From Lujinxingiaceae bacterium (GTDB taxonomy: Bacteria; Myxococcota_A; Bradymonadia; Bradymonadales; Bradymonadaceae), in NCBI GenBank assembly GCA_013697635.1, contig JACCWM010000084.1, positions 7,200-71,199 on the forward strand: a stretch of DNA of 64,000 nucleotides, read 5' to 3'. Each line of letters starts with the position of its first letter. Position 1 is the stretch's first letter. The position numbers and the translations under genes were made by a program. The notes beneath the pieces are model-generated. The model was given only the letters and a program-made list of their open reading frames with translations. It did no database searches and was not told the origin of the DNA. Shown here piece by piece: positions 8,956 to 38,794 of this stretch.

Positions 8956-8988
8956 TTGCCGTGGCTTTCGTTAGCGTGACTTGAAAAG

Positions 8989-21384: not shown

Positions 21385-21418
21385 GTGGGTCCAGGAGCGT
21401 TGTATGCCTGAGTGCGGT

Positions 21419-21454
21419 ATCCTTGACTGCTGGAGGATCCTTGACTGCTGGAGG
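21419..21454 (+). repeat. Perfect tandem duplication, 2 x 18 bp (atccttgactgctggagg), upstream of the motor cluster
   Basis: Read directly: unit 1 at 21419-21436, unit 2 at 21437-21454. Each unit contains a TTGACT hexamer. Confidence 0.9.
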
Positions 21455-21601
21455 GCAATGGCCCATTCTGCCGTCGAGCAGCTTGGGCCTGGAAACTTGA
21501 GATTAAGTCGAGGGTAGTCTAGGCTGCTGACGACTCATCGCTTAGAGGCAAGTTGCTGAGTTCATGGGTGAAGTCGTTGTATTGATGATTAACTTTAAAG
21601 G

Positions 21602-22486
21602 ATGTCGTATATGAGATGCAGACTCTTGCCCGTGTTCGCGGTGCTGGTCCTGCTTTTTGTGGTGCCTGTTGGAGCGGCCTTTGCCCAGCAAGATGCAGAG
21701 GCGGCAGACGAGCCCGTTGAGACAACGCAGTCGTCGAATCCTTCGCCCATTGAAGAGCCCGGCGTGCAGGCTCCAGGCGAGGGCGTCGCAAAACCAAACG
21801 GCCCGGTGCGTGGACCTGGAGGGCGCACCCTTCGTTCGGATTACCCAGGCACGGATGCTTCACTGCAGCCGAGTATGGATACCGCTCGGATTGAAGGCAT
21901 CAGCATCCAAGATGGCCAGCGACCCGAAGAGGTCTACGACTTGCGCGTCAAGGAGCTCGAGACGAAGATCGACGACCTCAAGGAGCGTGTCTTTCGATCG
22001 AAGAGCCGAATCGTGCTGCTCAAAGAGACTGTGCTCAGTGGAAATCTGGCGGGCAGCCGTGTGATCATCACCCATGAATCCAAACTCGGAGCCACCTATA
22101 AGATTCGCCGCGGGCTCTTTAGTTTGGACGGCAACCGCGTATTCAACCGCATCGATCGCGATGGGGACTTGGCCGGTGAGCGCGAGTTGGACATCTACAA
22201 CGGCACGGTCACACCGGGCACACACACCGTTTCAATCATGCTCGGCTTGCAAGGCAGCGGCTTTGGCCTGTTCTCCTACGTCAAGGGATACGAGTTCAAC
22301 CTGCGCTCATCGTGTCAGTTTACGGCAGAGGAAGGTAAGACCACGTTGCTCTCGATTGTGACCTACGAGCAGGGCAACGCCTTTACGGCTCACGAAGATC
22401 GTCCAGCCGTTATGTGCCAGGTGAGCATGGTCGATCTGACCACTTCGGATCTCGAGGCCGAGGCGGCAGAAGCTGAAGGCAAGTAA
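21602..22486 (+). CDS. Secreted protein: signal peptide, acidic/Pro-rich spacer, coiled coil, beta-rich C-terminal domain (unknown family)
   Basis: MSYMRCRLLPVFAVLVLLFVVPVGAAFAQQ. The coiled coil is VYDLRVKELETKIDDLKERVFRSKSRIVLLKE. An AAAGGA RBS is present. This is the first gene of the cluster. Confidence 0.65.
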   Translation: MSYMRCRLLPVFAVLVLLFVVPVGAAFAQQDAEAADEPVETTQSSNPSPIEEPGVQAPGEGVAKPNGPVRGPGGRTLRSDYPGTDASLQPSMDTARIEGISIQDGQRPEEVYDLRVKELETKIDDLKERVFRSKSRIVLLKETVLSGNLAGSRVIITHESKLGATYKIRRGLFSLDGNRVFNRIDRDGDLAGERELDIYNGTVTPGTHTVSIMLGLQGSGFGLFSYVKGYEFNLRSSCQFTAEEGKTTLLSIVTYEQGNAFTAHEDRPAVMCQVSMVDLTTSDLEAEAAEAEGK

Positions 22487-22492
22487 CGAGAC

Positions 22493-24880
22493 GTGCAGTT
22501 TTGCGTTCATTCGGGCCTGGCCGCACGGCATTGTATTGTGCAATTGACGAGCATGGAACATATGATATTGCCGCTTACTCCCACGTCGTTTCTGGAGCGT
22601 GGCCCATTTTGGGTGGCTGTTTGCACGGCGTTTGTGATCTTGCTCGGCTCTTCGGCGACCCAGGCTCAGCCGCTCGACGTACTGATCGCGGAAGCCGAAG
22701 GTTTCGACGCCACCTTGGGCCGCATTGAGGAACGCTATTTGACCCCGGCTCAACTTGAGTCGCGTTTTCGCCTTGAGACGCGCTTCAATGACGCGCGTGT
22801 GGCCTATTTTCTCAAAGATTACGTGCGCGCCAGCATCATCTTGGTCGCCGTGGTCGAGAATCCGGCCGTGCGACAGTTCGACAGCTACCGCGATGCGCTC
22901 TACATGTTGGGAGACTGCCTCTTCTTGCTTCGAAGTTACAAGGCTGCGCGTAGCTTCTTTCAAACCGTCGTGGATTTGGGACCGGGCTTGTATTACCAGG
23001 AAGCCGTCATTCGTTTGCTGGAGATCGCGTCGACGACCAACAATTTCGAGGGCGTCGAGGAGCTCTACAGTCGGCTCGATTCGCTCCAGAACATCAGCCC
23101 GCAACTCGCGTATATGCGCGGAAAGACCCTCTACCACCAGAAGAAGTACGCCGATGCGCGCCAGTGGTTCCAGCGCGCAGCAGTCGATGCCGAGCACGCC
23201 TTCGTCGCCCGCTATTATGAAGGCATCGCTTTTGCCGCTCAGCGCCAACTCGGGCCCGCTCGCGAGGTCTTCCAGTCCATCGTTCGTGAAGCGCCCAGAA
23301 CACCGCGCGACAGCAACGTGGTCGACATGGCTTATCTGGCGCTCGGACGGCTGGCCTATGAGGAAGGCAACTTCGATACGGCCATAGACCACTACTTGCA
23401 GCTGCCACGAACCAGCCCGGGCTTCGAGCGCGCGCTCTACGAGCTGACCTGGTCATTGATCTCGCGTGGAAGTCACCGTGCAGCGCTTCGCAACGTCGAT
23501 ATCTTGCTCTTGTCCAACCCTCAGCCCACGTTCGTGCCTGAGGCAAAGCTTCTCATGGCCGATCTGGCCCTCAAGCTCGGTGAGCACGACGACGCGCGCC
23601 GCTCCTATCAAGACGTCATCGACACATTTGCTCCGGTGCACGACGAATTGATGCATTTCATTGCTCAAAACAACGATCTCGAGGCGTTCTTCGTCGACCT
23701 TGTGCGCCGTGACATTGAAGGCGGAAAACCCGACTATCTGCCGCCGATGGTGGCCGATTGGGCCGCAAAAAGCACGTTGATGGAATCGGCCACGCGTCTT
23801 GTGCACGATAATATCATGACACAAGAAGACATCGATGAGGCGCTGGCGGCGATCGAAGAGATCGAGGCCTTGCTCGGCTCAGGTTCGGCAGTCGAGGCGT
23901 TTCCGCAACTCGCCGAGGGGATGGTTATGGGCGTCGAGACCGAGAACAACATTATTGATGTCAATCAGAGGTTGCTCGTCCATGAGCGCAAGTTGCTCGA
24001 GTCTTCCATGTCGGCCCAGGAGCGTCAGCGCTGGACGGAGCTCGAAGGGCAGCTCAAAGCATTTCAGACTCAGTACGCAACGCTTCCCAAAAATCGCGAA
24101 GAGCTGCGTGCACGGGAAAAGAAGATCGCTGGCGAGTTCTCTCGCTTGCGCCGAAAGCTCGACAGTGTTGCGTACGATATCGACACGCTGCGGGTTCATC
24201 TCTCGGGCATCGATACCTATCTTCGCAATAATCCGCTCACCGAAATGCCCGTAGCGGATCGCCGCCAGGTCGATCAGATCCGTGGCGAGCTACGCCTGAC
24301 AATCGCCGATCTCGAGAAGGTACGCATAGCCCTGCAGCGCCAAATCGACATCACGCGCCGCGAAGTCGGCGTCGGCGATCGGGTGGCCGCACACGAGCGC
24401 CAGCTTCGCGAGCAGTACCTGCGCATGCTCAGCGAGCGAAGCCAATTTCTCGAAGCCTTGCACGGGCGCGCCTCCGGTGAGAGCCGAGGCTCATTGCAGC
24501 GTATTGCCACCGCACGCCAGCGCATTCCAGCTGCCAGCGCTCGCTTGCACCGCTTCTTTGCTGCGATGAATGTGCTCATCGATGAGCGCGTACACGATGT
24601 TCGTCAAACGCTCGACATTGAATACGACGTATTGATGGGCTATCAGCAGGAACTCAACGTGATTAAAGGCGACTCCGAATCGGCGGCAGCAGCCGTGGCT
24701 CACCTCAACTTCAAGAACGTCGGTGAGCAGTTCGAAGAGATCATCTTGCGCGGAAACGTTGGATTGATCGACGTAAGCTGGCAACAAAAAGACGACGTCA
24801 CGGTTGGCATCAATCAACTCTTCGAAGATCGGGCCGCAGAGCTGCAGTTGCTGCGCGATGCGTTCAAGGACGTGCGCTGA
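22493..24880 (+). CDS. Secreted TPR plus long coiled-coil protein (795 aa; start uncertain: GTG 22493, ATG 22553 or ATG 22562)
   Basis: Hydrophobic leader FWVAVCTAFVILLGSSATQAQP, TPR-like repeats over about residues 60-400, then heptad-rich ELRAREKKIAGEFSRLRRKLDSV... Begins 6 nt after the upstream stop. Confidence 0.7.
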   Translation: MQFCVHSGLAARHCIVQLTSMEHMILPLTPTSFLERGPFWVAVCTAFVILLGSSATQAQPLDVLIAEAEGFDATLGRIEERYLTPAQLESRFRLETRFNDARVAYFLKDYVRASIILVAVVENPAVRQFDSYRDALYMLGDCLFLLRSYKAARSFFQTVVDLGPGLYYQEAVIRLLEIASTTNNFEGVEELYSRLDSLQNISPQLAYMRGKTLYHQKKYADARQWFQRAAVDAEHAFVARYYEGIAFAAQRQLGPAREVFQSIVREAPRTPRDSNVVDMAYLALGRLAYEEGNFDTAIDHYLQLPRTSPGFERALYELTWSLISRGSHRAALRNVDILLLSNPQPTFVPEAKLLMADLALKLGEHDDARRSYQDVIDTFAPVHDELMHFIAQNNDLEAFFVDLVRRDIEGGKPDYLPPMVADWAAKSTLMESATRLVHDNIMTQEDIDEALAAIEEIEALLGSGSAVEAFPQLAEGMVMGVETENNIIDVNQRLLVHERKLLESSMSAQERQRWTELEGQLKAFQTQYATLPKNREELRAREKKIAGEFSRLRRKLDSVAYDIDTLRVHLSGIDTYLRNNPLTEMPVADRRQVDQIRGELRLTIADLEKVRIALQRQIDITRREVGVGDRVAAHERQLREQYLRMLSERSQFLEALHGRASGESRGSLQRIATARQRIPAASARLHRFFAAMNVLIDERVHDVRQTLDIEYDVLMGYQQELNVIKGDSESAAAAVAHLNFKNVGEQFEEIILRGNVGLIDVSWQQKDDVTVGINQLFEDRAAELQLLRDAFKDVR

Positions 24881-27800
24881 TGATGCCCAAGAACAGTGGT
24901 CGAAATTGGCTCCCGGACAACGGACAAACGATGGTCCCTCGAAAGAGTGACAGACGGCTTTGGATGCATTGTGCAAAAATCGGCCGCCTGCTCGCGCTTT
25001 GTGCCTTGCTTTGTGTGTGTCCATCCCTTGTTTATGGCCAAGAAGAGGCCGATCTCGCTCCCTCCTCGGATGAGCAAGCCGAGGGAGAAGTAGCCAGCGA
25101 GAAAGCTGCTGACGAGGGCGCGCCTGTTCGCGATGTGCCGCCGCCGCCCAGCGCGATCCCCGCTGCGCCCGAAGCGCCCCCGGGTGCGGACAAGGAATTT
25201 ACCCAGGCCTTGGATGCCTACGGCAAGGCTCACGGTCGCTATGCCCGTGAGATTCAAGACTATCAAGATACGATCGATGCGATCATCGAGGCGGAGTACA
25301 ACCGCCGGGTTGCCCAGATCAACAGCCAGTATGATGGACAGATACGCTCGATGGAGATCATCGAGCGCAAACATCGAAACGAGGCGATCGCTGCTTTTGA
25401 GCAATTCTTGCAGCGCAATCCAAGCGAGCCTCGCTACACGCCCGATGCGCTCTTTCGGTTGGCGGAACTCTTTTTTGAGAAGACCAACGACGACTTCATG
25501 ATCGCCGACGAGCAGTACCGCACCGATCGCGCACTCTTTGAGGCCGGCCGCATCGCCGACGAGCCCGTCGAGGCCGTGCGAAGCTATGCGCAGCCCATGG
25601 TGTTGTTCAATCGCCTCATTCGTGATTGGCCCGATTACCGTCACGTCGACGGTGCCTATTACTTGCTCGCCTATTGCGAACAACAGATGGGTAATCCGGA
25701 CAAGGCGCGTGACCTCTTCGCGGAGTTGATCGTCAAGCGCCCGGACAGCAACTTCGTTCCCGAAGCCTGGTTGCGCATCGGTGAGTATCACTTTGATTAT
25801 GCCGAGGGCACCGGTGAGCAAAGCATCACCAAGAATCTCGAGCTGGCCATGAATGCCTACCAACAGGCCATGCAAGACGAGGGTAGCCAATTCTATGACA
25901 AGGCCCTCTACAAGTTGGCTTGGACGCACTACCGCCTCGACGATTTCGACAAAGCGATCGCACACTTCAAAAAGCTCGTCGAGTACAGCGACGAGGTCGA
26001 GCGACGTACCGGCCGATCCGGTGCTGTGCTTCGCGAGGAGGCCGTGCAGTACATCGCCATCGCTTTGGCCGAGGAAGACTGGGATCTCGACGGCGCGCGT
26101 GACGACGATTACGGCCTGGTGCGCGTCAAGAAGTATTTGCGCGGCGAGCACGACTACGAGCGTGAGGTCCTCGTGCAGTTGTCGGGCTTTCTCTTTGACC
26201 GTGCCCAGTACGAACAGACCATTGCGATTTACGAATACATCATCGCGAACAATCCCACGCATCGCGAGAATCCGCTGATTCACGAGAAGATTGTGATCGC
26301 GCTGCACAGCGACTCTCAGCCCGAGGCCGCCTTCGAGGTACGCCGTCGCCTGCTGGAATTCTACGGCCCTAACAGCGAGTGGTACGCCTATCAGCGACGC
26401 GTTGGAAACGACGAAGCGCTTCGCTACGCCGACAACGTCGTGCGCGAGAACCTCATCCAGGCAGCGACCTGGTACCACGAGGAGGCCCAGAGTCTTCGAA
26501 ACGAAGCGCTGGTGCGCCGTGATCCAGACTTGCTAGTGCTCACGCAACAGCGCTACCGGTTGGCCGCAAGCGCCTATGAGGAGTTTCTCTCGCGCTATCC
26601 CAACGACAAAGAAGTGTTCCAATGGAACTTTTACTATGCGGAGTGTCTCTACTACTCCGGACAGTACGATGTGGCCTTCGAACAATACCAGGTGGTGCGT
26701 GAGCTCGATCTTACCAACAACGAGTACCAGGAGATCAGTGCCTTCAATGCGATCAAGGCCCTGGAGTTCACCATGCGCGATATGATCCAGCGCGGTCAGC
26801 TCTCAAGCACGGCTCTGGCCGGCCTGGATCTCGACGAGGCTCGCGAAACGGCACAAAGTCAGGCTACTCAACGTGAAACCGATGAGCGCCAGGAGCAAGT
26901 CGGCGTGATCGAGGCTGAGACGGTGCCCCCGATCGTTGAGAAGTACGTTACGGCCATGGATCGCTACGTCGTTTTAAGACTCCAAAACCCCGATGATCGC
27001 TATCTCGACGCCAAGTTTGCCTTTCAATCGGCCAAGGTCTATTACGATTTTAAGAATTACGACGAAGCTCGCCGCCGCTTTGCCTGGATTGTAAACAACT
27101 ACTCCGAGCACGAAGTGGCCTATCTTGCCGGCAGCCTGATCTTGGAGACCTACCGCGAAGAGCAGAACTACGCCATGCTCGCGGAGTGGGCCGAGCGTCT
27201 GGCGACGGTGATCAAGGGTGATCAGGCCGATGCGGTTCGCGCCGAAGTTCGTGAGTTTCGCCTCGGCGCACTGTTCAAATCGGCCGAAGCCCTCTATTCC
27301 GAGAAGAAGTATGCTGAGGCGGCCGAAGAGTACATTCGCCTGGTCAACGATGCACCCAACCATGAGTACGCGCCGAAGGCTTTGAACAACGCTGCCGTGG
27401 CCTACGAATTGTTGCAGCGCTACGACTCGGCGCTTCGCCTCTACGAGCGTGTTTATCAAGAATACCCCACCGATCCGTTGGCCGGCTACGCGCTCTACCG
27501 TGTTGCGATCAATTCGGAGCGCTTCTTCGAATTCGAAAAGGCGATCCAAAACTACACGCTCTTCTACGACAAGTTTCGTGGCCAGGCGCCTAAAGAGCTC
27601 ACCGACATGGGTTTTGTCGTCGAGGAGAAGCGCTCCGAGGCCCTCAAGAGTGTTGCCGTCTTGTATGAAAACCTGCAGCGCTATGACGAGGCTTCGAAGA
27701 GCTACATCCAGTTTGCGCGGGCTTATCCCAACGATCCGCAGGCCGGTCCAGGAATGTGGCAGGCCGTGCTCGTTTACCAAAAGGCCGGCAATACGCGCCA

Positions 27801-28554
27801 GATGATCGATACGATTCAGACCTACATCCGCGAATACGGTCAGAATCCCGAAAACAGCCTCAAGGTGCTCGAGGGCATGACGATCATCGCCGACCACCAT
27901 GAAAACAGCAAAGATCGGCGCAACGCCGCGATCTGGTATCGCACCGTGCTCAACGAATTCTCCAAGCGCGGCATGGCGCCGGCCTCACCGGCTGCTTTCT
28001 ACAGCGGCAAAGCCGAATTCATGCTCGTCGAGCATGAGTTTGACAAGTGGAAGGCGCTCAAGATCAACGGTAATCTTCGCAACCAAGAGCGCCTGCTCAA
28101 AGAGAAGATCGCCGGACAACAAAAGCTTACCGAGCAGTACAATCTGGTCATGGGCCATCGCAGCTTGGAGTGGACCATGGCAGCGAACTTTCGGATCGGA
28201 TCGTTGTTGCAACACTTTGCCGCGGCGCTCTACGAGGTGCCGATCCCCTTCCCCGAAGGCAGCGACGAGTTCGACATCTATCAGGAACGCCTCGAAGACA
28301 TCGCCATCCCGCTCGAGGAAGCCGCGATCGCGCGCTACGAGGCCACGATCAAGCGTGCCCAGCAGGATAAGATCGTCAACGAGTGGACCAAGCGCACGCT
28401 CGACGAACTCAACAAGTTTAAGCCTGGCGAGTATCCTCTCTACAAGGAGGAGCGCCGCTCGGTTCAAAAGCGCACCGTCACGGGTCTACCGTACCTCGAT
28501 TCCGAGGGCTATAAGACCTTCAAGGAGCGCGTCGAAGAGGGGGACCGCACGTGA
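24880..28554 (+). CDS. Very large secreted TPR protein, GltD/AgmU-like by size, architecture and position
   Basis: 1224 aa. Leader IGRLLALCALLCVCPSLVYGQ, then TPR-type repeats throughout (for example YDKALYKLAWTHYRLDDFDKAIAHFKKLV). The ATGA overlaps the upstream stop. Confidence 0.7.
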   Translation: MMPKNSGRNWLPDNGQTMVPRKSDRRLWMHCAKIGRLLALCALLCVCPSLVYGQEEADLAPSSDEQAEGEVASEKAADEGAPVRDVPPPPSAIPAAPEAPPGADKEFTQALDAYGKAHGRYAREIQDYQDTIDAIIEAEYNRRVAQINSQYDGQIRSMEIIERKHRNEAIAAFEQFLQRNPSEPRYTPDALFRLAELFFEKTNDDFMIADEQYRTDRALFEAGRIADEPVEAVRSYAQPMVLFNRLIRDWPDYRHVDGAYYLLAYCEQQMGNPDKARDLFAELIVKRPDSNFVPEAWLRIGEYHFDYAEGTGEQSITKNLELAMNAYQQAMQDEGSQFYDKALYKLAWTHYRLDDFDKAIAHFKKLVEYSDEVERRTGRSGAVLREEAVQYIAIALAEEDWDLDGARDDDYGLVRVKKYLRGEHDYEREVLVQLSGFLFDRAQYEQTIAIYEYIIANNPTHRENPLIHEKIVIALHSDSQPEAAFEVRRRLLEFYGPNSEWYAYQRRVGNDEALRYADNVVRENLIQAATWYHEEAQSLRNEALVRRDPDLLVLTQQRYRLAASAYEEFLSRYPNDKEVFQWNFYYAECLYYSGQYDVAFEQYQVVRELDLTNNEYQEISAFNAIKALEFTMRDMIQRGQLSSTALAGLDLDEARETAQSQATQRETDERQEQVGVIEAETVPPIVEKYVTAMDRYVVLRLQNPDDRYLDAKFAFQSAKVYYDFKNYDEARRRFAWIVNNYSEHEVAYLAGSLILETYREEQNYAMLAEWAERLATVIKGDQADAVRAEVREFRLGALFKSAEALYSEKKYAEAAEEYIRLVNDAPNHEYAPKALNNAAVAYELLQRYDSALRLYERVYQEYPTDPLAGYALYRVAINSERFFEFEKAIQNYTLFYDKFRGQAPKELTDMGFVVEEKRSEALKSVAVLYENLQRYDEASKSYIQFARAYPNDPQAGPGMWQAVLVYQKAGNTRQMIDTIQTYIREYGQNPENSLKVLEGMTIIADHHENSKDRRNAAIWYRTVLNEFSKRGMAPASPAAFYSGKAEFMLVEHEFDKWKALKINGNLRNQERLLKEKIAGQQKLTEQYNLVMGHRSLEWTMAANFRIGSLLQHFAAALYEVPIPFPEGSDEFDIYQERLEDIAIPLEEAAIARYEATIKRAQQDKIVNEWTKRTLDELNKFKPGEYPLYKEERRSVQKRTVTGLPYLDSEGYKTFKERVEEGDRT

Positions 28555-29903
28555 GGAACTCAGGCGTCGGTTCAAAATTGAAGGGGAGCAACCGATCGAG
28601 CTCGTTGATCGCCAGTCTCTTGTGGCTTGGGCTGCTCGTGGGCTGCTCGTCGACTCCAGACAAGCCCGATTCGCCTACAACGGAGCAGTCCGCAGGCGAT
28701 CAGAGCGAGTTCAGCGCGCAGCCGCAGAGGGCGGCGGTCGAATTGCCCGACGCCACGTCGATTGGTGACGACACCGATGCCAGTGCCACGGGCGCCGTCG
28801 CCCCCCATGTCAACGCCCGCATCCGTGCGGCGATCGACAGCGCCGATCAGGGCCGCAGCGACGTGGCGATCCAGACGTTGGCCGAGCTGGTCAACGAGCC
28901 CGAGGGCGGTTTTTTGGCGGCCTTCAATCTCGGTGTGATCTACGATCGCAAAGGTGACCTCGATGTCGCTGCGCGGCGCTACATCCAGGCGTTGCAAAAG
29001 AACCCTGACTTTAGCCCGGCCTTGACCAATCTGGTGCGCATCTACCTGCGTCAGAATCGGCTTGCCGATGCTGACGATATCGCCCGCCGCTTCGTGGATC
29101 TGCGCTCTGAAAACCTCGAACACCGCGCCGTTCGCCTGGAAGTCTTTCTGGCACAAAAGCGCTTCGAGGATGTGGTGCGCAGCGCCAAGGAGATCTTGCG
29201 AAAGGACGAGCGCCACGTCGATGCCATGCTCGCCATGGCCCATGCGAACTATCAACTCGAGCGCTACGAGCTTGGCCTGGCGATCTTGCGAAGTGCGATC
29301 AAGCTCGCGCCGCGGCGCGCCGAGATCTACTACCTCTATGGCAATCTCGAGCTCGCCATGGGCCGATCGCCTTCGGCCATGGCCAACTACCGCCGCGCGA
29401 TCGAGCTGCAATCGGATTATCCGGAAGCCCGAAACAACCTGGGCCTTCTCTATCACGAGGCCCGCGATCACGAGGCCGCCGTCGAGCAATTCCTCTTTGC
29501 CCTCGATGGGTTCCCCGATTTCAAGCAAGCCTATTTGAACCTGGGCAATGCCTACAAAGGTATGGCTCGTTTCAAAGAGGCCGAAGGCGCCTTCTTGAGA
29601 GCGCTCGCCCTCGACAACGATTATGCCGATGCCTATTTCAATCTGGGGATCCTCTATCTAGAAAGCGATCTGCCGGGCATGGAGGCGATCCCTCGTCTGC
29701 ACCGCTCCATCGAGGTTTTCAATCAATACCGGCGCGCTGCGCGCGGCCAGATGACCAACGAAGATCCGGTGGCGAGATTTATCGAAGAGGCTAACAAGTC
29801 CATCGAACAGGCACGCCAACGCGAGGATATGGCGCGTCGTGCCCAGACCCAGGCCGAAACCCCGCCAATCCAAGAAGACGGGGTTGATGATGACGATGAG
29901 TAA
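28551..29903 (+). CDS. TPR lipoprotein, GltE/AglT-like
   Basis: Lipobox LLWLGLLVGCSS. Canonical TPRs (AFNLGVIYDRKGDLDVAARRYIQALQKNPDF..., AYLNLGNAYKGMARFKEAEGAFLRALALDNDYADAYFNLG). GTGA overlap with the upstream stop. Confidence 0.75.
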   Translation: MRNSGVGSKLKGSNRSSSLIASLLWLGLLVGCSSTPDKPDSPTTEQSAGDQSEFSAQPQRAAVELPDATSIGDDTDASATGAVAPHVNARIRAAIDSADQGRSDVAIQTLAELVNEPEGGFLAAFNLGVIYDRKGDLDVAARRYIQALQKNPDFSPALTNLVRIYLRQNRLADADDIARRFVDLRSENLEHRAVRLEVFLAQKRFEDVVRSAKEILRKDERHVDAMLAMAHANYQLERYELGLAILRSAIKLAPRRAEIYYLYGNLELAMGRSPSAMANYRRAIELQSDYPEARNNLGLLYHEARDHEAAVEQFLFALDGFPDFKQAYLNLGNAYKGMARFKEAEGAFLRALALDNDYADAYFNLGILYLESDLPGMEAIPRLHRSIEVFNQYRRAARGQMTNEDPVARFIEEANKSIEQARQREDMARRAQTQAETPPIQEDGVDDDDE

Positions 29904-29975
29904 GCTACTTGATGGTGGACAGAATACCCATCCTCTCATACCCTTGGTGCAGAGGAAGCAAACACAAGGAAAGTC

Positions 29976-30224
29976 ATGCTAGACCTAGCCCTCAAGACTG
30001 TCGCATTTGTGCTCGTCGCCGGCTTCACTACCGCGGCATTGGGTAGTTCGCCGGCCTACGCACAGCGTGTCATTGAGTTCGAGGAGATCGTGGTCGAGGG
30101 GCGCATACAAAAGCCGGAGGCGTTCTATATCCTTCAGCACGCCAATCTCAACTACGAAGCACTCAATCCCAAGCCTTCCTTTTTGAAAGAGTTGCTGGAG
30201 ACGGTCGAAGATGACTTGTTCTAG
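29976..30224 (+). CDS. Small secreted protein (82 aa), in the position of GltF
   Basis: MLDLALKTVAFVLVAGFTTAALGSSPAYAQ signal peptide and a mature part of about 52 aa. Assigned by size and position only. Confidence 0.5.
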   Translation: MLDLALKTVAFVLVAGFTTAALGSSPAYAQRVIEFEEIVVEGRIQKPEAFYILQHANLNYEALNPKPSFLKELLETVEDDLF

Positions 30225-30246
30225 AAGCGTGGCCACGGGTCGAGTT

Positions 30247-30260
30247 GTTGATAAATCAAC
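30247..30260. repeat. Perfect inverted repeat GTTGAT-AA-ATCAAC (candidate operator or small hairpin)
   Basis: Read directly. Lies 23 nt after the stop of the 82-aa gene, inside a 255-nt gap. Confidence 0.4.
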
Positions 30261-30479
30261 GGCTTATGGCCATTGGGCCGATGCCCTCGGATGAGAAAAA
30301 GTACTTTGCCGCTGCCAAACCTATGTGTTATAGATGTCAGTCTCAATCGGAGCCTTCAAAGAGGCAATTGACCAAGTAAACAGTGGTTGGTTCCACAGAA
30401 GGAAGACGAGTCAAAACAGGTAATTAATCGCAATCCAGCCGGGTCGCAACAATCTCAACAAGCACGGAGGTAACTGGAC

Positions 30480-31127
30480 ATGGGCGCAATCGCTGAAGCC
30501 TTTCGTACGGGCGGTATATGGATGTACATCATCCTTGCCACCAGCATTTTTGCACTTGGTATCACCATCGAGCGCTTTTTCTTCTTGTTCTTTAAGTACA
30601 ACATCAACGCGCAAGCGTTCATGGCTCAGATCCAGAAATTGGTGATGGCGGACAATGTGGATCGAGCAATCAAGTTGTGCAACGCGGCTCCTTCGCGTGC
30701 ACTTCCCCAGGTCATCAAGGCCGGGTTGACGCGTGCGAACAAGGGCGAGGTGGAGATTCAAAATGCCATCGAAGAGGCGACCCTCGAGGTCGTGCCCAAG
30801 GTTCAAAAGCGCACCCCTGCCCTGCAGACCATCGCCAACGTGGCGACGTTGCTCGGCCTTCTGGGTACAATTATCGGTCTGATCGAGGCCTTCGAGGCTC
30901 TCGAGAAGGCCACCCCGGAGAATCGTCAGCGCATGCTCTCGCGTGGTATCGCTATGGCCATGAACACGACCGCTTTCGGTCTGGTTGTCGCCATCCCGAC
31001 GCTGGTTGCCCACCTTATTTTGTCGGGCATGACCAAGAAGATCCTCGACGAGATCGACATGTACAGTGTCAAGCTCGAGAACCTTCTGGTAACGCGCGGC
31101 AAGGGTGGCTCGGCTCCTCTGGAGTAA
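30480..31127 (+). CDS. MotA/TolQ/ExbB-family proton channel (AglR-like)
   Basis: GGIWMYIILATSIFALGITIERFFFL...LQTIANVATLLGLLGTIIGLIEAF...GIAMAMNTTAFGLVVAIPTLVAHLIL. Three TM segments with family motifs. GGAGG RBS present. Confidence 0.9.
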   Translation: MGAIAEAFRTGGIWMYIILATSIFALGITIERFFFLFFKYNINAQAFMAQIQKLVMADNVDRAIKLCNAAPSRALPQVIKAGLTRANKGEVEIQNAIEEATLEVVPKVQKRTPALQTIANVATLLGLLGTIIGLIEAFEALEKATPENRQRMLSRGIAMAMNTTAFGLVVAIPTLVAHLILSGMTKKILDEIDMYSVKLENLLVTRGKGGSAPLE

Positions 31128-31280
31128 GCTGCTCGTCGGATCGGATTGGCGCAACGCCTGGCTCAGCACAAGCAGATTCCCCCAGGATTGGGGGGAGCTG
31201 CCTGTGCGAGGCGCGCGAAGTGCATTGAAGCGTACGAACAAGCTGTGTTTGCGCTGAGGCTTGTAAGATAAGGAGGCTAA

Positions 31281-31943
31281 ATGGCGCGCCGCCCACGGGT
31301 CGTGGATCCAGAGTCAGATCTGAACCTCGCACCCATGATGAACCTGGTCATCATTCTCATCCCGATGCTGCTGCTCTCCGTTGTTTTCTTGGAGGTAGGT
31401 GTCATCAATATTACCGCGCCGACGTTGTCGGTGGGGGCGCCAAGCGAGCCCAAGGACGAGCCGGAGGAGCAACCGCTCAATCTCACGGTCGCCATCTCGG
31501 CCAACGGTTTTCAGATTGCGGCAACAGGTGTGGTCTTGCCTGCCCGTGCTGGATGCCCGACGCAGGGGCCGACGATTTGTCTCGACGATCAAAATGTCGA
31601 TGTGTCGGCAAAGTTTGAGGAAGCCCGTCGCATCATGTCCGCCGGCAGCGAAGGCGGTGGAGAGGACGTGCTCAAGCAAGGCTTGGCTGCTTACAGTTTT
31701 CGTGAGTTGTACAATCAACTCTCGCGCATCAAGAAAGAGTATCCCAAAGAGACGATTATCACCTTGTCGGCCGATGCCGATGTCCCCTACGCGGTTTTGG
31801 TACGTGTGATGGACGTGGCGCGTTTTCAACTCGAGAAGGATTCGTACGACACGGCGAGCGATTTTTGGAGCGCGACGGCCAAGACCGAGGGCAATGCCTA
31901 CTCGGAGCTCTTCAGTGATCCGGTGTTGTCCATTTTGCAGTGA
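31281..31943 (+). CDS. ExbD/TolR-family protein, paralogue 1 (TM Asp replaced by Asn; long C-terminal domain)
   Basis: SDLNLAPMMNLVIILIPMLLLSVVF aligns with TolR EINIVPLLDVLLVLLLIF. The Asn codon AAC is at 31341-31343. 220 aa. AAGGAGG RBS present. Confidence 0.8.
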   Translation: MARRPRVVDPESDLNLAPMMNLVIILIPMLLLSVVFLEVGVINITAPTLSVGAPSEPKDEPEEQPLNLTVAISANGFQIAATGVVLPARAGCPTQGPTICLDDQNVDVSAKFEEARRIMSAGSEGGGEDVLKQGLAAYSFRELYNQLSRIKKEYPKETIITLSADADVPYAVLVRVMDVARFQLEKDSYDTASDFWSATAKTEGNAYSELFSDPVLSILQ

Positions 31944-31977
31944 TTTGACCCAAGCCTCGTGCTCCTGGAGGGCTTAG

Positions 31978-32577
31978 ATGCAAGACAATGAAGAGAAAGT
32001 GGCCGGATTTGGTCATGATGAAGAAGAATGGATTCGGGCTCAACGCGCCCGGGAAGCCAAGCGCAACAAGAAAAAGCGCGGCGGTGAGACCGGCACACTG
32101 AGCATGAACTCACTGATGGACATTCTTGTCATCATGCTCGTCTTCCTGCTCAAGAGCTACGGCGACGAGCCGATTAAGGCGGTCGGCGAGGATCTCAAGG
32201 TTCCGAGCAGCGCCTCGCAGCTCAACCCGGAAGACACGACCGCGGTGACGATCTCGCGCAAGTCGATTTTGGTGAACGACAAACTGGCCGTCGACGTCAA
32301 GAATGGCGCGATCGATCAGAGCCAGAAGCGCGGCGGCGATCGCGGCATGATCATTCAGCCGCTGTTCGACGAGTTGACCGACGCGATCAACAAGAAGAAG
32401 CGCGAAACCACTTTGCTCGGTCAGACCTACGAGCCGGTGGCCACGATCATCGCCGATCAGACCACGCCCTATCGGTTGATCACGGAGGTGATGTACACCG
32501 CCGGGCAGGCCGAATTGCGCCAGTTCAAGTTTGCGGTGATCAAGGGTGACATGAAGTCATTCGGTCCTGCCGACTGA
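31978..32577 (+). CDS. ExbD/TolR-family protein, paralogue 2 (TM Asp conserved; Lys/Arg-rich N-terminal extension)
   Basis: TLSMNSLMDILVIMLVFLLKS with GAC (Asp48) at 32119-32121. 199 aa. Confidence 0.8.
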   Translation: MQDNEEKVAGFGHDEEEWIRAQRAREAKRNKKKRGGETGTLSMNSLMDILVIMLVFLLKSYGDEPIKAVGEDLKVPSSASQLNPEDTTAVTISRKSILVNDKLAVDVKNGAIDQSQKRGGDRGMIIQPLFDELTDAINKKKRETTLLGQTYEPVATIIADQTTPYRLITEVMYTAGQAELRQFKFAVIKGDMKSFGPAD

Positions 32578-32587
32578 TTTGCCCAAC

Positions 32588-32615
32588 GGCTTGGACGCGA
32601 TGGCTTGGACGCGAT
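32588..32615 (+). repeat. Perfect tandem duplication, 2 x 14 bp (ggcttggacgcgat)
   Basis: Read directly: 32588-32601 and 32602-32615, located 11 nt after the ExbD-2 stop. Confidence 0.9.
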
Positions 32616-32694
32616 TTCTCCATGCCAGGCCTTGTAGAGTGTGTAGCATGCTTAGCTTTGTCAGTACCTTGGAACTAATCCGTATAGATGTTGT

Positions 32695-32735
32695 CCATAG
32701 GCTCGGGTGCTAAGCACGCGAGCCTATGGTTTGTT
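32695..32735 (+). terminator. Strong stem-loop plus TTTGTT (candidate terminator or attenuator between motor genes and the TonB-like gene)
   Basis: ccataggctcg-g-gtg/ctaag/cac-g-cgagcctatgg: 11 bp, a G.G mismatch, then 3 bp. Followed by tttgtt. Confidence 0.5.
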
Positions 32736-32850
32736 CGCGTGGTTCCATTTACTAGGCGTCTATACATGAAGTTTTCGCTTTGGCGACCTGGGTTAACGTT
32801 GGGAACTGTTGGTTCTCACGTCCGGGCGTGAGGCTCCGAAGGATCTTTTT

Positions 32851-34233
32851 ATGTCCAGCCAGTCCGGCCAAAAAGTTCTGCGCATAGGGCTGATTCAGAA
32901 CGGAAAGATCATCGAAGAGCGCTTGATGCGCTCTATGAAACCCGTCACGATCGGCAGTGCGTTAGAGAAGAATGAGCTCGTTGTTCCGGCCTCGGATCTT
33001 CCGAAGTCGATGACGGTTTTTGACGTCAGCAACGGGCGCTACGTTCTACATTTCACCTCCAAGATGAGTGGGCGCGTTTCGCTTGGCGATGGTGTTGTCC
33101 CTCTCGAGGAACTGATCAGCAAGGGAAAGGCCAAGAAGACCGCTCAGGGCTTCTCGGTCGAGTTGCCACCCAATGGTCGGGGCAAGGTCGTCATCGGGGA
33201 GGTCACGCTGCTGTTTCAGTTTGTGACGGCTCCTGCGGCGCGTCCCAAGCCCGTGCTTCCCGCTTCGATGCGCGGTGGCTGGGGGCGTGGAATGGACCGG
33301 GCGCTGGGCTTGATCATCTTGCTCTCGGCGATCTTGCAGATCGGCTTCGTCGTTTATCTAGAGACCCAACATTTTCTCATTGAAGACATTGAGTACGTCT
33401 TTCCCACCCGCTTCGTCCAGATTTCCGTGGACAAGGATGAGGAAGAGCCGCCCAAGGTCGAGGTCGAAGTCACCGATGGCGACGGCCCCAGCGTCGAGAC
33501 CGAGGAGCCTGTGGCGACCAAGAGCGAGGATAAGGGCAAGGAGAGTCCCGAGGAGATGGCCGAAGATCGGGCGCGTGAGCGGACGATGAAGGCCGTTGAG
33601 GACAAGACTCTGCTGCGTGTGCTCGGTGCCAAGGGAGAAGGCGGCTCGGTGGTCGACACCCTGCTCAACGGCGTGGGCAACATCTCGGCCGAGGAGGCCT
33701 TTGCCAACTCGACGGGCGTGCAGCATGCCGAGGCCGGCGTCGAGCGCAGCGGAATCCGCGGCAAGGGCAGCCCCGATGGCGATGGTGTGGGAGCGCGCGC
33801 GGGCATCGATGAACTCGGCGCGATGAAGGGTGCCAAAAAGGCTCAGGGCGGCGTCGACACCGGCCAGATAGCCGAGCGTCAGGTCAAGGCGCGACCGATC
33901 AAGATCCAGGATCCCAACGACATGGCCGGCGGCACGCTGGACAACAAGACCGTCTCGACGGCGATTCGTCGTCGCCAGGCGGCGATTCAGGCCTGCTACG
34001 AGCGCGAGCTTCGCCGCAATCACCAGGCCGGCGGCCGCGTGGTGATCAACTTTACGATCAGCGCACGTGGCTCGCGCGGCGCCGTCACCCAGGCCAAGGC
34101 CGTTGTCGACGACGTCGGCGGTGGCGTGGGCCAGTGCGTGGCCAACGAGATCCAGAATTTGCGCGGCTTGCCAGCGCCAGATGGTGGCGATGTAATTATC
34201 AACATGCCGTTTGTCTTTCAGCCCGGCCAATAG
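32851..34233 (+). CDS. Bitopic inner-membrane protein with AgmX/PglI-type (TonB-C-like) C-terminal domain, GltG/GltJ-like
   Basis: Single TM ALGLIILLSAILQIGFVVYL, an acidic linker, and the C-terminus IQACYERELRRNHQAGGRVVINFTISARGSRGAVTQAKAVVDDVGGGVGQCVANEIQNLRGLPAPDGGDVIINMPFVFQP. ATG 32851 has an AAGGA RBS. Confidence 0.75.
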   Translation: MSSQSGQKVLRIGLIQNGKIIEERLMRSMKPVTIGSALEKNELVVPASDLPKSMTVFDVSNGRYVLHFTSKMSGRVSLGDGVVPLEELISKGKAKKTAQGFSVELPPNGRGKVVIGEVTLLFQFVTAPAARPKPVLPASMRGGWGRGMDRALGLIILLSAILQIGFVVYLETQHFLIEDIEYVFPTRFVQISVDKDEEEPPKVEVEVTDGDGPSVETEEPVATKSEDKGKESPEEMAEDRARERTMKAVEDKTLLRVLGAKGEGGSVVDTLLNGVGNISAEEAFANSTGVQHAEAGVERSGIRGKGSPDGDGVGARAGIDELGAMKGAKKAQGGVDTGQIAERQVKARPIKIQDPNDMAGGTLDNKTVSTAIRRRQAAIQACYERELRRNHQAGGRVVINFTISARGSRGAVTQAKAVVDDVGGGVGQCVANEIQNLRGLPAPDGGDVIINMPFVFQPGQ

Positions 34234-34427
34234 GTATGCTGAAATTGTGGCGCCGCCGGCTAAACTTGAATTGAGTTTGGCCGGTGCTACCTTCTTGAAG
34301 AGGCCGATGCATCGCCTCTTTGGGTAGACAGCTCGTCTTCTGCGCGACTTGCAAGGTGTTTGGACTGAGAAGCGCAGTAAATGTTGTAGGCGAGTTGAGT
34401 CATGATTCTTTCGGCAAAGGTTTTGTT

Positions 34428-35030
34428 ATGAAGATACGATGGGTTTCCTTCGTGGTCATCACCTTGGCGTTCGCGCTTGTCGGAGGGCTCGTCGTTGCGC
34501 AGCAGCGAGGCGGCCTCAATGAACAAGCGATTCGCGAGTTCAACGGGCGTAACGGCCGCGCATTGATCGACGAAGATATCGACAAGCTGACCGGCCCTCA
34601 GAAGTTGGATCGAAGCCAGAATAAGATCGCCACGATGAAGGTCGCGCTCGAGTCCACCGACCAGCTGCTTGGACGGGCGCGCACTCAGGAGCGTGATATC
34701 CTCAAGATCAACTGCATCAGCGAGAAGCTCGCGGCCGTCAAGGGCTTCGTCAAGGTCAGCGAGCAAAGCTATGTCAGTCTCTCCGATTCCGTGGGCAAGA
34801 GCGACAACGAGGCCTCCAAGCATCACTACACCCTGATCGCTATCGCCGGTCAAAAGGTCGGCGGTCTCAGTGAAGAGGCGCGTGTCTGTGCCGGCGAGGA
34901 GGTGCGTTATGCCGACGACACCATGCTCGATGTGACGATCGATCCGGACATCATGCCCAGCGACGAGTCCTTCTGGGGAGACGATCCACTCGTGCTCGAG
35001 TCACTTCCCAAATTCACCCCTTATTATTGA
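34428..35030 (+). CDS. Secreted, mostly helical periplasmic protein (200 aa), unknown family
   Basis: MKIRWVSFVVITLAFALVGGLVVAQQ signal peptide. Ends ...SLPKFTPYY. Confidence 0.55.
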   Translation: MKIRWVSFVVITLAFALVGGLVVAQQRGGLNEQAIREFNGRNGRALIDEDIDKLTGPQKLDRSQNKIATMKVALESTDQLLGRARTQERDILKINCISEKLAAVKGFVKVSEQSYVSLSDSVGKSDNEASKHHYTLIAIAGQKVGGLSEEARVCAGEEVRYADDTMLDVTIDPDIMPSDESFWGDDPLVLESLPKFTPYY

Positions 35031-35183
35031 AATTATTGAAAACTCTGATGCCCAACGCAGCCTTTGATTGCGGCGTTGGTTCAGTTCGACTGAGGAATTG
35101 CCTTAATCGCCTCCACCACTTCAATGGATGATTCGCGCCAGTAGCGAGTGTGGAAGGCTTTTCACATAGAATCGAGAATCTGT

Positions 35184-36491
35184 ATGGATGCAAAACTGAG
35201 AACGACGTGCCACATCGCCGCCTTCATTGCGCTGGTGATCGCGGTACCCGGCTCCGTGCGCGCCGAGCCCGGTGACGGTCTGCGCTCGGGCAATCTTCAG
35301 CTTAGCCCGGGCGTGATGCTGGGCACGGGCTTTGATACCAACCTCTTCTATGGCTCGGGTAGCGAGGAGATTCGTCAGGCTCCGATGGGCATCTTGGAGC
35401 CGCGTCTCAAGATTGCGACCATTGAGCCGACCAACTTCGATCTTGCGTTTAACGGCGCGGTGGGCTGGACGCAGTACTTCTCACTGCAGGAGGACGCCGT
35501 CACCAGGCAAAGCGGCCTCTCCTCGGCGTTGTCCGGCAGTGGTACGCTCAATCCGCGAGGCAACCTCAGCCTGCGCTTGAGCAACCACTTTTTGCGCACC
35601 AACGAGACCCCGAGCTCGTCGAGCGATGACAGCGTCAATCGCATTTGGAACCGCTCCGGTGTGGTGCTCGGGTTTCACCCGGGTGGGCGCGTTCTCGAAT
35701 CGCATCTGAGCTACAACTATACCGTTTATCGCCACAATCTCTATACCAACCTCGACCGCGGCAGCCACGGCCTGGGCTGGCGCAGTTCTTGGAAGTTTCT
35801 TCCCAAAACAGCGTTGGTCGCCGATGCAACCTATTCGATCGTGGGTTATCGCGGGGCGCAGGCGGATGATGCCGAGCGCATCGTCAAGGTTAACAGCACG
35901 CCGCTTCGTCTGTTGGGTGGAGTCAACGGCCTGTTGACCAACCGCCTCGGTGCCAAGCTGATGGCCGGATACGCCTGGGGCTTTTACGATGCCGGCGACT
36001 CCTTTCAAGGCGTGGTCGGCCTGGCCGAAGGCTATTACGGCTTTGGCAGCCATGGCATGAACAACCGCCTTCGCATCGGTTACGAGTACAATTTTCGAGA
36101 CTCGCCGATCAGCAACTATTACACCTTTCACCGTGTTTTTGGCGGCTATGAACAGGGCTTGATGAACAATCGTTTGCGTCTGGGGCTCGAGACCGAGACC
36201 CAGATTCGAGACTACCGCTACGCTGGTGGAGGGGTGCGCTTGCCCACCGCCAATGGCGGTGAGGTCGAGACGCCTAATTCGGTCAACGATCTGTCGGTGG
36301 GCGTGCGCGCCAGCGCCGGGTACCAACTCTCGGCCTGGTGGAATGCGGAGCTGAGCTATCGCTTCGGCACCAATTTCACCGATGACCAGATCCGCGTCTT
36401 CGAACAAAGTGGAGATATCGAACCCTCGCAAATTATTCTGCGTGAGTTCGTTCGCCACCACATTATGTTTCAGACGACCTTTACCTACTGA
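35184..36491 (+). CDS. Outer-membrane beta-barrel protein (GltH-like, or ExoB/EpsX-type partner of a short OPX protein)
   Basis: Signal peptide IAAFIALVIAVPGSVRAEP, alternating-hydrophobicity strands with Gly/Tyr/Asn-rich turns, and the C-terminal OMP signature ...IMFQTTFTY. Confidence 0.7.
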   Translation: MDAKLRTTCHIAAFIALVIAVPGSVRAEPGDGLRSGNLQLSPGVMLGTGFDTNLFYGSGSEEIRQAPMGILEPRLKIATIEPTNFDLAFNGAVGWTQYFSLQEDAVTRQSGLSSALSGSGTLNPRGNLSLRLSNHFLRTNETPSSSSDDSVNRIWNRSGVVLGFHPGGRVLESHLSYNYTVYRHNLYTNLDRGSHGLGWRSSWKFLPKTALVADATYSIVGYRGAQADDAERIVKVNSTPLRLLGGVNGLLTNRLGAKLMAGYAWGFYDAGDSFQGVVGLAEGYYGFGSHGMNNRLRIGYEYNFRDSPISNYYTFHRVFGGYEQGLMNNRLRLGLETETQIRDYRYAGGGVRLPTANGGEVETPNSVNDLSVGVRASAGYQLSAWWNAELSYRFGTNFTDDQIRVFEQSGDIEPSQIILREFVRHHIMFQTTFTY

Positions 36492-36683
36492 TCAGCGCCG
36501 GCCGCCCTTTTGGGTCCGAGTTGTGGCGCTGTGAAAAGCCCTAGAAATCAATAAGTTACGATGGTCCATGCGAGTGGTTGTGCGTGCTGGCCGCGTTCGT
36601 GCTATCGGTAATTGCGTGGCACGGCATGCCGCATGTGGCGGGATGCCGGTCGCTTTCAACAATTTGCCCCCGTGGGTGGCTTC

Positions 36684-37310
36684 ATGCATACATACAAGAT
36701 CTCGAGCCTGCGCTGGCTGCTGCCCATCGTCATCGCGCTGGGATGGGTTTCGGCCTGCACCCACGATCGTGTCGATCCGGCTTACGCTGCGCTCGTCGAA
36801 CAGCAAAATGATATGCCCGAGACCGGTGAACTGGGACCGGGTGACAAGTTTCAGATCCGCGTATTTGCCGAGGAAGATCTCACCGGTGAGTTCACGGTCT
36901 CGACCGATGGTACGGTCAACTACCCCTATGTTGGCCGCTTCCAGGTGACCGGTTTGACCTGCGCCGACGTCGAGGAGTTGGTCACCAACGGGCTAAAGGG
37001 CGGCTTTGTGCGAAGCCCCAGCGTGTCGTGCTCGATCACGGAGTACAATTCCAAGCGAATATTTATCTTTGGCGAGGTCAAAAAGCCTGGTTCCTTTGCA
37101 TACAAATCCAATATCAGTATCATCGAGGCGTTCGCGCTCGCGGGTGGGTTCGGTGAGCGTGCAAATACGAATAACACCAAGTTGACCCGCGTGGTTAACG
37201 ACGTCGAGATTCAGGTGCGTGTGCCGATGCAGGAGATCGTCGAAGGCCGACAGAGAAACATTCGGCTGCTGCCTGGCGATATCATCTACGTGCCGGAGTC
37301 GGCCTACTGA
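36684..37310 (+). CDS. Short OPX (Wza-like) polysaccharide export lipoprotein without the C-terminal OM-spanning helix
   Basis: Lipobox LPIVIALGWVSAC. Poly_export motif GPGDKFQIRVFAEEDLTGEFTVSTDGTVNYPYVGRFQVTGLT. SLBB RIFIFGEVKKPGSFAY...LLPGDIIYVPES. About 209 aa, whereas E. coli Wza as I recall is substantially longer. Confidence 0.85.
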   Translation: MHTYKISSLRWLLPIVIALGWVSACTHDRVDPAYAALVEQQNDMPETGELGPGDKFQIRVFAEEDLTGEFTVSTDGTVNYPYVGRFQVTGLTCADVEELVTNGLKGGFVRSPSVSCSITEYNSKRIFIFGEVKKPGSFAYKSNISIIEAFALAGGFGERANTNNTKLTRVVNDVEIQVRVPMQEIVEGRQRNIRLLPGDIIYVPESAY

Positions 37311-37334
37311 TCGCTTAATGACGAGGGATGTTGC

Positions 37335-38762: not shown

Positions 38763-38794
38763 GCGCTTGAATCCGATCGTTGGCTCAGGGCTAG

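Follow-up and report, generated by a model that had tools for sequence, protein, structure and literature searches.

Twelve same-strand, operon-like genes in the 64,000-nucleotide (nt) stretch of contig JACCWM010000084.1 analyzed here (hereafter, the window), whose host is a predatory Bradymonadaceae bacterium, encode homologs of the Agl-Glt/Nfs machinery of Myxococcus xanthus together with an 18-stranded outer membrane (OM) beta-barrel and a lipoprotein of the OPX (outer membrane polysaccharide export) type. On balance, we lean toward the view that the block specifies one envelope-spanning machine of the Agl-Glt/Nfs type that is joined to an OPX/barrel translocon and acts by proton-motive force on a secreted polysaccharide. 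The evidence comes from profile matches to the individual products, a structural model of the barrel, and the conservation of the block in relatives.

We scanned one genome per species for related loci and compared these by tblastn. Fifteen related genome loci were found in Bradymonadia, Nannocystaceae, and other Myxococcota metagenome-assembled genomes (MAGs), and the gene order recurs in these 15 as well as in Bradymonas sediminis and one metagenome contig, at 23 to 87% amino acid identity. The order common to the loci of sufficient extent is GltC-like, GltD-like, GltE-like, GltF-like, [TolQ-like, ExbD1, ExbD2], GltG-like, g10, barrel, and OPX, an arrangement far beyond chance. The OPX gene adjoins the barrel gene in every locus reaching beyond the barrel (L001-L003, L005-L012, L014, L015, L017, and L018). 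Four of the loci, from Bradymonadia and Myxococcota MAGs (L008-L011), are without the three motor genes and retain the rest, including OPX. Their layout resembles that of the G1 and nfs clusters in M. xanthus, where several systems share a single motor whose genes lie elsewhere. The same 12-gene block is present in the cultured type strain B. sediminis FA350, where it adjoins PolX.

Glt-like and motor proteins of the block

A preliminary description of this DNA, made from the letters alone, had listed eleven same-strand genes ending with the barrel gene at 36491. All 11 plus-strand open reading frames (ORFs) were found at the coordinates given there, and they correspond to 11 consecutive NCBI locus tags of a Bradymonadaceae MAG, H0U74_09500 (g01) to H0U74_09550 (g11); the g01, g09, and g11 products are 100% identical to Bradymonadaceae bacterium MAG proteins. 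Pfam and NCBIfam searches, hydropathy, and an AlphaFold2 (AF2) model of the barrel likewise bore out the domain content proposed. The end of the block, in contrast, lies farther downstream, as a twelfth same-strand gene (ORF 36612-37310) is conserved beside the barrel gene. Genes 2 to 4 had been described as translationally coupled through a 6-nt gap followed by ATGA and GTGA overlaps. The 6-nt gap does separate g01 from gene 2 (GTG 22493), with the reservation that this start is uncertain because a signal-like segment begins ~35 residues in, and the GTGA overlap is present at the junction of genes 3 and 4. The junction of genes 2 and 3, however, is not ATGA but TGATG, a stop/start overlap of 1 nt. 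A promoter and terminator scan returned no more sites than in shuffled sequence, and an Rfam search of positions 20000-39500 gave no matches.

NCBIfam gliding models respond to four products of the block, namely those for GltC, GltE, GltG, and, weakly, GltF/CglF. The strongest match is that of the 460-amino-acid (aa) product to gliding_GltG (NF033760; 111 bits, E = 4.6e-32, model positions 225 to 647 of 650, cutoff 650), and its AgmX/PglI tail (NF033768) scores 69.6 bits, above the curated cutoff of 40. The 450-aa lipoprotein matches gliding_GltE (NF033758) with 87 bits (E = 1.1e-24, model positions 11 to 395 of 411, cutoff 225). The 795-aa product, not recognized as such in the preliminary description, appears to be GltC-like (NF033756 gliding_GltC; E = 1.4e-18, 67 bits, model positions 120 to 450 of 622, equivalog cutoff 450), although generic tetratricopeptide repeat (TPR) models give similar scores, and its gene keeps a position directly upstream of the GltD-like gene across loci. 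The match of the 82-aa exported protein to gliding_CglF (NF033764) is weak (E = 0.008); we take CglF to be the same protein as GltF. The C-terminal 50 residues of this small protein are 42 to 70% identical in all loci, and its gene always sits between the GltE-like gene and either the motor or the GltG-like gene.

TPR Pfam families match the 22493, 24880, and 28551 products. The second of these, at 1224 aa, is a candidate GltD-like protein on the basis of its length, TPR content, and flanking position: the GltC-like and GltE-like genes stand on either side of it in every locus (37 to 75% identity), and M. xanthus GltD is ~1200 aa (PMC11761067). No GltD profile in NCBIfam responded to the 1224-aa protein or to its Nannocystaceae orthologue.

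Hydropathy places a single transmembrane (TM) segment in the 460-aa GltG-like protein at residues 151-170. It is preceded by a cytoplasmic domain that corresponds to GltG's membrane-proximal FHA-like region, and followed by an acidic, low-complexity periplasmic linker that is presumably disordered and by a tail resembling the TonB C-terminal domain, of the AgmX/PglI type. The same architecture of FHA-like domain, TM segment, linker, and TonB-like tail has been described for GltG (PMC11761067), but the FHA domain that comes first in M. xanthus GltG is absent here. A profile search with g09 against PDB sequences found no relatives. The Nannocystaceae orthologue of the GltG-like protein scores higher, with 172 bits for GltG and 31.7 bits for TonB_Cterm (cutoff 27.1), and thus connects the proteins of Bradymonadia with the Myxococcus family.

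The TolQ-like gene and two ExbD/TolR genes are placed between the F-like and G-like genes. The 30480 product matches MotA_ExbB (PF01618) with 94 bits and TolQ (TIGR02796) with 65 bits, and its closest relative of solved structure is TolQ (2.6e-8), with ExbB next. It carries the conserved motifs LLGLLGT (T130), NTTAFG (T163/T164), and AIP (P173), which include the Thr residues of TM2 and TM3 and the Pro, and it is 68 to 87% identical across loci. The two ExbD/TolR paralogues differ at the site of the essential TM Asp of TolR/ExbD, where paralogue 1 has an Asn (Asn21, ...MMNLV...) whereas paralogue 2 retains the Asp (D48). This asymmetry holds in 10 of 10 aligned sequences, those of the window and of nine motor-bearing loci (L001-L004, L006, L007, and L012-L014). 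AlphaFold models of the M. xanthus system show an AglR5QS motor and a GltD-centered scaffold (PMC11761067), and under the AglR5-AglQ-AglS model the Asn/Asp pair would therefore make the stator plug a heterodimer in which only one residue can be protonated.

Altogether, the GltE and GltG profiles, the weak GltF/CglF match, and the TolQ-like and two ExbD/TolR proteins uphold the homology to the M. xanthus Agl-Glt/Nfs machinery that had been proposed for the block. The colinearity suggested for it, D-E-F-[R-Q/S-Q/S]-G-x-H, holds in part: E, G, and the placement of the motor between the F-like and G-like genes stand, F is weak, D is assigned by size, TPR content, and position, and H must be given up.

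The proposed outer membrane exit and other genes of the window

An AF2 model of g11, built from a 30-sequence alignment, has 18 long strands and no plug domain (pLDDT [predicted local distance difference test] score, 89.8; predicted template modeling score, 0.82), and the N terminus of the protein is a hydrophobic, signal-like segment. BBP2_2 (PF10082) is matched by 20 of the 30 members of the barrel family, with a best E value of 1e-10, and two members match EpsL (TIGR03014), a barrel of polysaccharide loci. Taking the model and family matches together, we consider g11 a candidate polysaccharide porin of the Wzp/EpsX-like type. The preliminary description had equated this terminal barrel with GltH. 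Mature GltH in M. xanthus is ~20 kDa, and GltA and GltB are ~25 to 27 kDa (PMC9946355); a protein of 435 aa with an 18-stranded, BBP2_2/EpsL-type fold is thus ruled out as GltH.

The twelfth gene encodes a Class-3/D1D2 OPX lipoprotein. Within the 232-aa ORF, Poly_export (PF02563) is matched at residues 73-142 with 69.7 bits and a single SLBB domain at 148-227; the probable start is ATG 36684, and the lipobox reads VSAC. No Wza_C domain was found in Pfam and NCBIfam scans, and the protein also matches EpsE, EpsY, and PEP-CTERM export models. Class-3/D1D2 OPX proteins are without an OM pore and pair with adjacent 18-stranded barrels (PMC9601211, PMC9603273). The conservation of this gene moves the likely function of the block toward polysaccharide handling.

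The surroundings of the related loci point in the same direction. A Wzc-like polysaccharide co-polymerase (PCP), composed of Wzz, GNVR, and tyrosine-kinase ATPase domains, follows the OPX gene in nine loci (L002, L006, L007, L009-L012, L014, and L015); seven of the nine also contain an NAD-dependent epimerase, and six of these a UDP-glucose dehydrogenase. On the metagenome contig (L018), which was reached through a distant BBP2_2 barrel homologue, GltG-like, g10-like, barrel, and OPX genes are followed by a Wzy_C polymerase and then by an initiating glycosyltransferase, an epimerase, a DegT aminotransferase, a methyltransferase, and a GT4 glycosyltransferase (L018 3754-13158). In B. sediminis, a UDP-glucose dehydrogenase gene lies two genes downstream of the block. 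Other features of these surroundings are that the NAD epimerase precedes the PCP in most PCP loci, that an NTP_transf_5 gene is found on the opposite strand in L006, L007, L009-L012, and L014, and that a DUF1508 gene follows the PCP in L009 and L011.

Two further members of the block, g01 and g10, encode lineage-specific proteins that are probably accessory parts. No M. xanthus counterpart of either turned up in the searches applied. Both have hydrophobic, signal-like N termini, as do the 82-aa protein and the barrel. The g01 product consists of a disordered Pro/Glu-rich stretch, a 43-residue helix (residues 108-150), and a beta-sandwich (152-278) with an invariant Cys pair (C238 and C272); an invariant GPGGRxLRxDYPGT motif at residues 71-84 lies ahead of the coiled coil. 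Its AF2 model has a pLDDT score of 74 overall and ~90 in the sandwich. No Pfam or NCBIfam family was matched, and Foldseek yielded only generic transthyretin/Ig-like sandwiches. All 246 homologs of g01 are uncharacterized, and those carrying a name all belong to Bradymonadia; some are labeled dihydrolipoamide acetyltransferase in UniRef, an apparent artifact of the Pro/Ala-rich linker. In L008, L011, and B. sediminis, the gene stands first and the GltC-like gene follows it; g01 precedes the GltC-like gene wherever the locus reaches that far.

The g10 product looks helical from its sequence. Exactly two Cys residues (C96 and C154) are invariant across nine divergent homologs, which suggests a periplasmic disulfide in an apparent helical hairpin. 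No relatives were found in Pfam, NCBIfam, or PDB sequences, and the gene is kept between the GltG-like and barrel genes in most loci. We considered g10 as GltH, given its similar size and position, and rejected it: the protein appears helical and charge-rich, with two conserved Cys residues and no conserved barrel terminus.

The flanks of the block are unrelated to it. Upstream lie the SecY-RpoA end of a ribosomal-protein cluster, a PhoA-like phosphatase, an asparaginase, PolX, and speE, and downstream a Ser/Thr kinase, a sigma-54 activator, an ABC-F protein, UvrD, DksA, and CheR. The kinase gene was considered as a member of the block and rejected; none of the related loci carries it, so that a lineage-specific neighbor is the probable explanation. 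Farther along the window, the G+C content rises from ~0.58 to 0.61-0.67 beyond ~42 kb (positions 42000-64000), with third-codon-position values of up to 0.85, and the genes at ~42000-64000 include those for a sigma-54 activator, a cyclic-nucleotide-monophosphate-binding protein, UvrD, a TSP3-repeat protein (59047-61089), and a CheR-TPR fusion (62805-63938, minus strand). Two TPR proteins are encoded outside the cluster, at 8981-10693 (570 aa, plus strand) and 50272-51858 (528 aa, minus strand), and no link of these to the Glt-like block was seen.

Coordinates of the genes of the block and of the kinase gene that follows it (window positions)
Feature	Position	Strand	Evidence
g01, exported protein	21602..22486	+	Signal-like N terminus, AF2 beta-sandwich
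GltC-like periplasmic TPR/coiled-coil protein, 795 aa	22493..24880	+	NF033756, TPR Pfam, synteny in all loci
GltD-like giant TPR scaffold (candidate), 1224 aa	24880..28554	+	TPR and YbgF-like repeats, length, position
GltE-like TPR lipoprotein, 450 aa, lipobox LLVGC	28551..29903	+	NF033758
Small exported protein, 82 aa, GltF/CglF-like candidate	29976..30224	+	Weak NF033764, position
AglR-like TolQ/ExbB/MotA-family proton channel, 215 aa, three hydrophobic segments	30480..31127	+	PF01618
ExbD/TolR paralogue 1, AglQ/S-like, 220 aa	31281..31943	+	PF02472, 48 bits
ExbD/TolR paralogue 2, AglQ/S-like, 199 aa	31978..32577	+	PF02472, 38 bits
g09, GltG-like bitopic transducer, 460 aa	32851..34233	+	NF033760, NF033768, one TM segment
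g10, exported protein, 200 aa	34428..35030	+	Signal-like N terminus, position
g11, 18-stranded OM beta-barrel, BBP2_2/EpsL type, 435 aa, C terminus ...TTFTY	35184..36491	+	AF2, family profiles
Class-3/D1D2 OPX lipoprotein, twelfth gene	36684..37310 (ORF from 36612)	+	PF02563, SLBB
Ser/Thr protein kinase	37335-38762	+	Starts 24 nt after OPX stop; hydrophobic segments at residues ~325-371, uncharacterized C-terminal domain

Proposed mechanism and competing explanations

If the block specifies a single machine, a pentamer of the TolQ-like channel (30480) would house an ExbD/TolR heterodimer in a 5:1:1 arrangement in which only the 31978 product, through D48, could be protonated, and proton flow would be turned into conformational work. 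This work would pass to the GltG-like protein (32851), whose acidic linker and TonB-like tail may reach the TPR scaffold of GltD-, GltE-, GltC-, and GltF-like proteins. The scaffold, in turn, would contact an OM exit made up of two proteins, the 18-stranded barrel (35184) and the short OPX lipoprotein (36684). On the cell surface, such a machine could move, anchor, or deposit a secreted polysaccharide of the Wzx/Wzy type, as Agl-Nfs does for the spore-coat polymer of M. xanthus. Were the polymer to adhere to the substratum, the same activity could appear as gliding.

Several observations weigh against this interpretation. The g11 product itself falls below the thresholds of PF10082 and EpsL, and a Foldseek search with it against the PDB was nondiscriminating, returning TonB-dependent receptors, Occ porins, AlgE, and PgaA. 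The 64-kb window holds no genes for a PCP, Wzx, Wzy, or a glycosyltransferase, so that the polymer pathway would need to be encoded elsewhere in this lineage; nor was a PCP found near the Lujinxingia loci. Scores against the Glt equivalog models are all far below the equivalog cutoffs, and we therefore regard the Glt-like products as distant relatives and not as orthologues of motility proteins. Gene adjacency is no proof of physical coupling. Finally, cultured Bradymonadales have been described as "gliding" (Lujinxingia) and "weakly gliding" (B. sediminis) (PMC7188933), and a primary role in motility is accordingly possible.

The main rival, which is compatible with a role in polysaccharide handling and which we consider rather unlikely, is that the block is a gliding motor proper, equivalent to Agl-Glt and powering the surface movement of single cells in Bradymonadia, in which the barrel and OPX lipoprotein act as an OM platform or slime outlet replacing GltA/B/H/K. 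It draws on the homology of the parts to Glt and Agl, on the gliding reported for Lujinxingia and B. sediminis and the "flagella and gliding" of P. caeni (PMC7188933), and on the expanded core sets that have been tied to gliding in Bdellovibrio (PMC3169522). However, Pfam and NCBIfam scans of the ORFs in the 64-kb window, the locus included, detected none of GltA, GltB, GltK, GltH, GltI, GltJ, CglB, AglZ, and MglA/B, and GltA/B/K/H/I/J and CglB are essential in M. xanthus. The core alone has been argued to be insufficient for motility (PMC3169522), and the conserved linkage in relatives is to polysaccharide export genes. Furthermore, the soft-agar assay behind the term "gliding" cannot separate gliding from movement by type IV pili, and spreading in Bradymonabacteria has been attributed to type IV pilus-driven S-motility (PMC11509652).

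It is also conceivable, if improbable, that two independent systems are neighbors here, with a Glt-like core standing beside an OPX/porin pair that serves an unrelated polysaccharide pathway. The gaps upstream of the OPX ORF (120 nt) and the barrel gene (153 nt) permit separate promoters, and PCP and synthesis genes are absent from the window. Yet in Bradymonadia, Nannocystaceae, and other Myxococcota MAGs the adjacency is kept as identity falls from ~87% to ~23%, and it is also kept in loci that have lost the motor genes.

We see little chance that the block is a Tol-Pal-like system for envelope integrity or division, built of a TolQR-type motor, a TolA-like transducer, and YbgF/CpoB-like TPR proteins. 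TolQ is indeed the closest solved relative of the channel, the 460-aa protein has a TolA/TonB-like layout, and the 1224-aa protein scores 128.8 bits against YbgF repeats (TIGR02795). That score, however, is summed from five separate TPR stretches, and the specific matches in the block are to GltC, GltE, and GltG. The block contains no TolB and no Pal/OmpA-like domain, and its conserved neighbors are OPX, barrel, and PCP genes. Ordinary TonB-ExbBD nutrient uptake energizing an OM receptor is very improbable: it would account for the ExbB/ExbD-family proteins and the TonB-like C-terminal domain, but that domain reaches only 13.9 bits against tonB_Cterm (TIGR01352; cutoff 27.1), such systems do not typically have two distinct ExbD paralogues and giant TPR proteins, the conserved block holds no TonB-dependent receptor, and the barrel, which has 18 strands and lacks a plug domain, differs from a TonB-dependent transporter with its 22 strands. 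The preliminary description had depended on the locus being neither a Tol-Pal nor a TonB-ExbBD uptake system, and this distinction holds.

Returning to the single machine acting on a secreted polysaccharide, we offer a broader suggestion more tentatively. The locus family may represent a surviving form of the hypothesized link between capsule-type polysaccharide export and Glt/Nfs surface motors, in which a GltG/D/E/C scaffold ties a TolQR-like proton motor firmly to a Class-3 OPX/18-strand porin, so that export or deposition would be energized directly by proton-motive force. This would occur in culturable, nonsporulating predators (Bradymonas, Lujinxingia, and Persicimonas) and could also underlie the gliding reported for them. 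The locus family unites a motor, a periplasmic Glt scaffold, and a polysaccharide OM exit in one conserved block, and it thereby addresses what the ancestral function of the Agl-Glt core was and how gliding and spore-coat assembly both came to be powered by a motor of the TolQR type. Since the block is present in cultured strains such as B. sediminis FA350, the core function is genetically testable, including the coupling of Class-3 OPX/porin export to proton-motive force. Even if the block is only a gliding or envelope module, the range of Glt-like systems is widened to Bradymonadia.

Comparison with published systems

The closest published arrangement is the core complex of Luciano et al. 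(2011; PMC3169522), which comprises gltC, gltD, gltE, gltG, aglR, aglQ, and aglS, occupies a single region in gammaproteobacteria, Geobacter, and Fibrobacter, and is seen as the ancestor of the split G1, G2, and M1 clusters and the nfs operon of M. xanthus. In one same-strand region, the block has seven proteins that answer to these: an AglR-type channel and two TolR/ExbD proteins beside a GltG-like protein, and three TPR proteins, of which one is GltE-like and two are GltC-like and GltD-like candidates. Because this core has already been published as an ancestral single locus, the compact layout is not in itself new, and the idea in the preliminary description that a motor had been inserted into a glt operon reverses the published order of events. 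Relative to the core complex, the block adds a GltF-like gene (Group A, restricted, in PMC3169522), g01, g10, the 18-stranded barrel, and the Class-3 OPX gene, and it occurs in Bradymonadia, a lineage outside the coverage of the 2011 study.

Compared with the M. xanthus gliding machinery, the block has homologous E, G, and R/Q/S components and, less certainly, C, D, and F, and its D-E-F-G order matches that of the G1 cluster. It is without the GltA/B/K/H platform, GltI/J, and the CglB adhesin, and its GltG-like protein is without the first FHA domain. The best functional analogy is instead Agl-Nfs. AglRQS also drives Nfs, which transports the Exo/MASC polysaccharide of the spore coat and contributes to its assembly, its export being the work of a Wza-like protein (PMC3858216, PMC12288465); this is a Glt-paralogous complex with a TolQR-like motor and a polysaccharide exported via a Wza-like OPX and its partner barrel. 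The nfs, exo, and agl genes occupy three separate loci in M. xanthus, whereas the corresponding parts are contiguous here. Unlike Agl-Nfs, the block has no small barrels of the NfsA/B or NfsH type, and Bradymonadia are not known to sporulate.

The proposed OM exit has its counterparts in the composite OPX/barrel translocons EpsY/EpsX, ExoA/ExoB, and WzaB/WzpB (Schwabe 2022, Saidi 2022), in which the same kind of Poly_export and SLBB OPX protein is encoded beside an 18-stranded barrel. In contrast to those translocons, the pair here ends a Glt-like motor operon and does not lie in a biosynthesis cluster. The papers examined do not join the two subjects: the words "polysaccharide" and "Wza" are absent from PMC3169522, Glt and Nfs are absent from the Class-3 OPX papers PMC9603273 and PMC12819527, "Glt" occurs in PMC9601211 only in a gltB control strain, and neither Agl nor Glt is mentioned in the Bradymonabacteria and Persicimonas papers (PMC11509652, PMC7188933).

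In the accessible literature, the conserved linkage of Glt genes with a Class-3 OPX/18-strand porin pair, g01 and g10, and the occurrence of the system in Bradymonadia are unreported. Agrebi et al. 2015 (Nat Rev Microbiol) is said to propose a capsule origin, or a link between capsule and motility, for these machines, and may already show such intermediates. Thus, the machine type and its single-locus core were already known, and the wiring to a polysaccharide exit is what the block adds as new.

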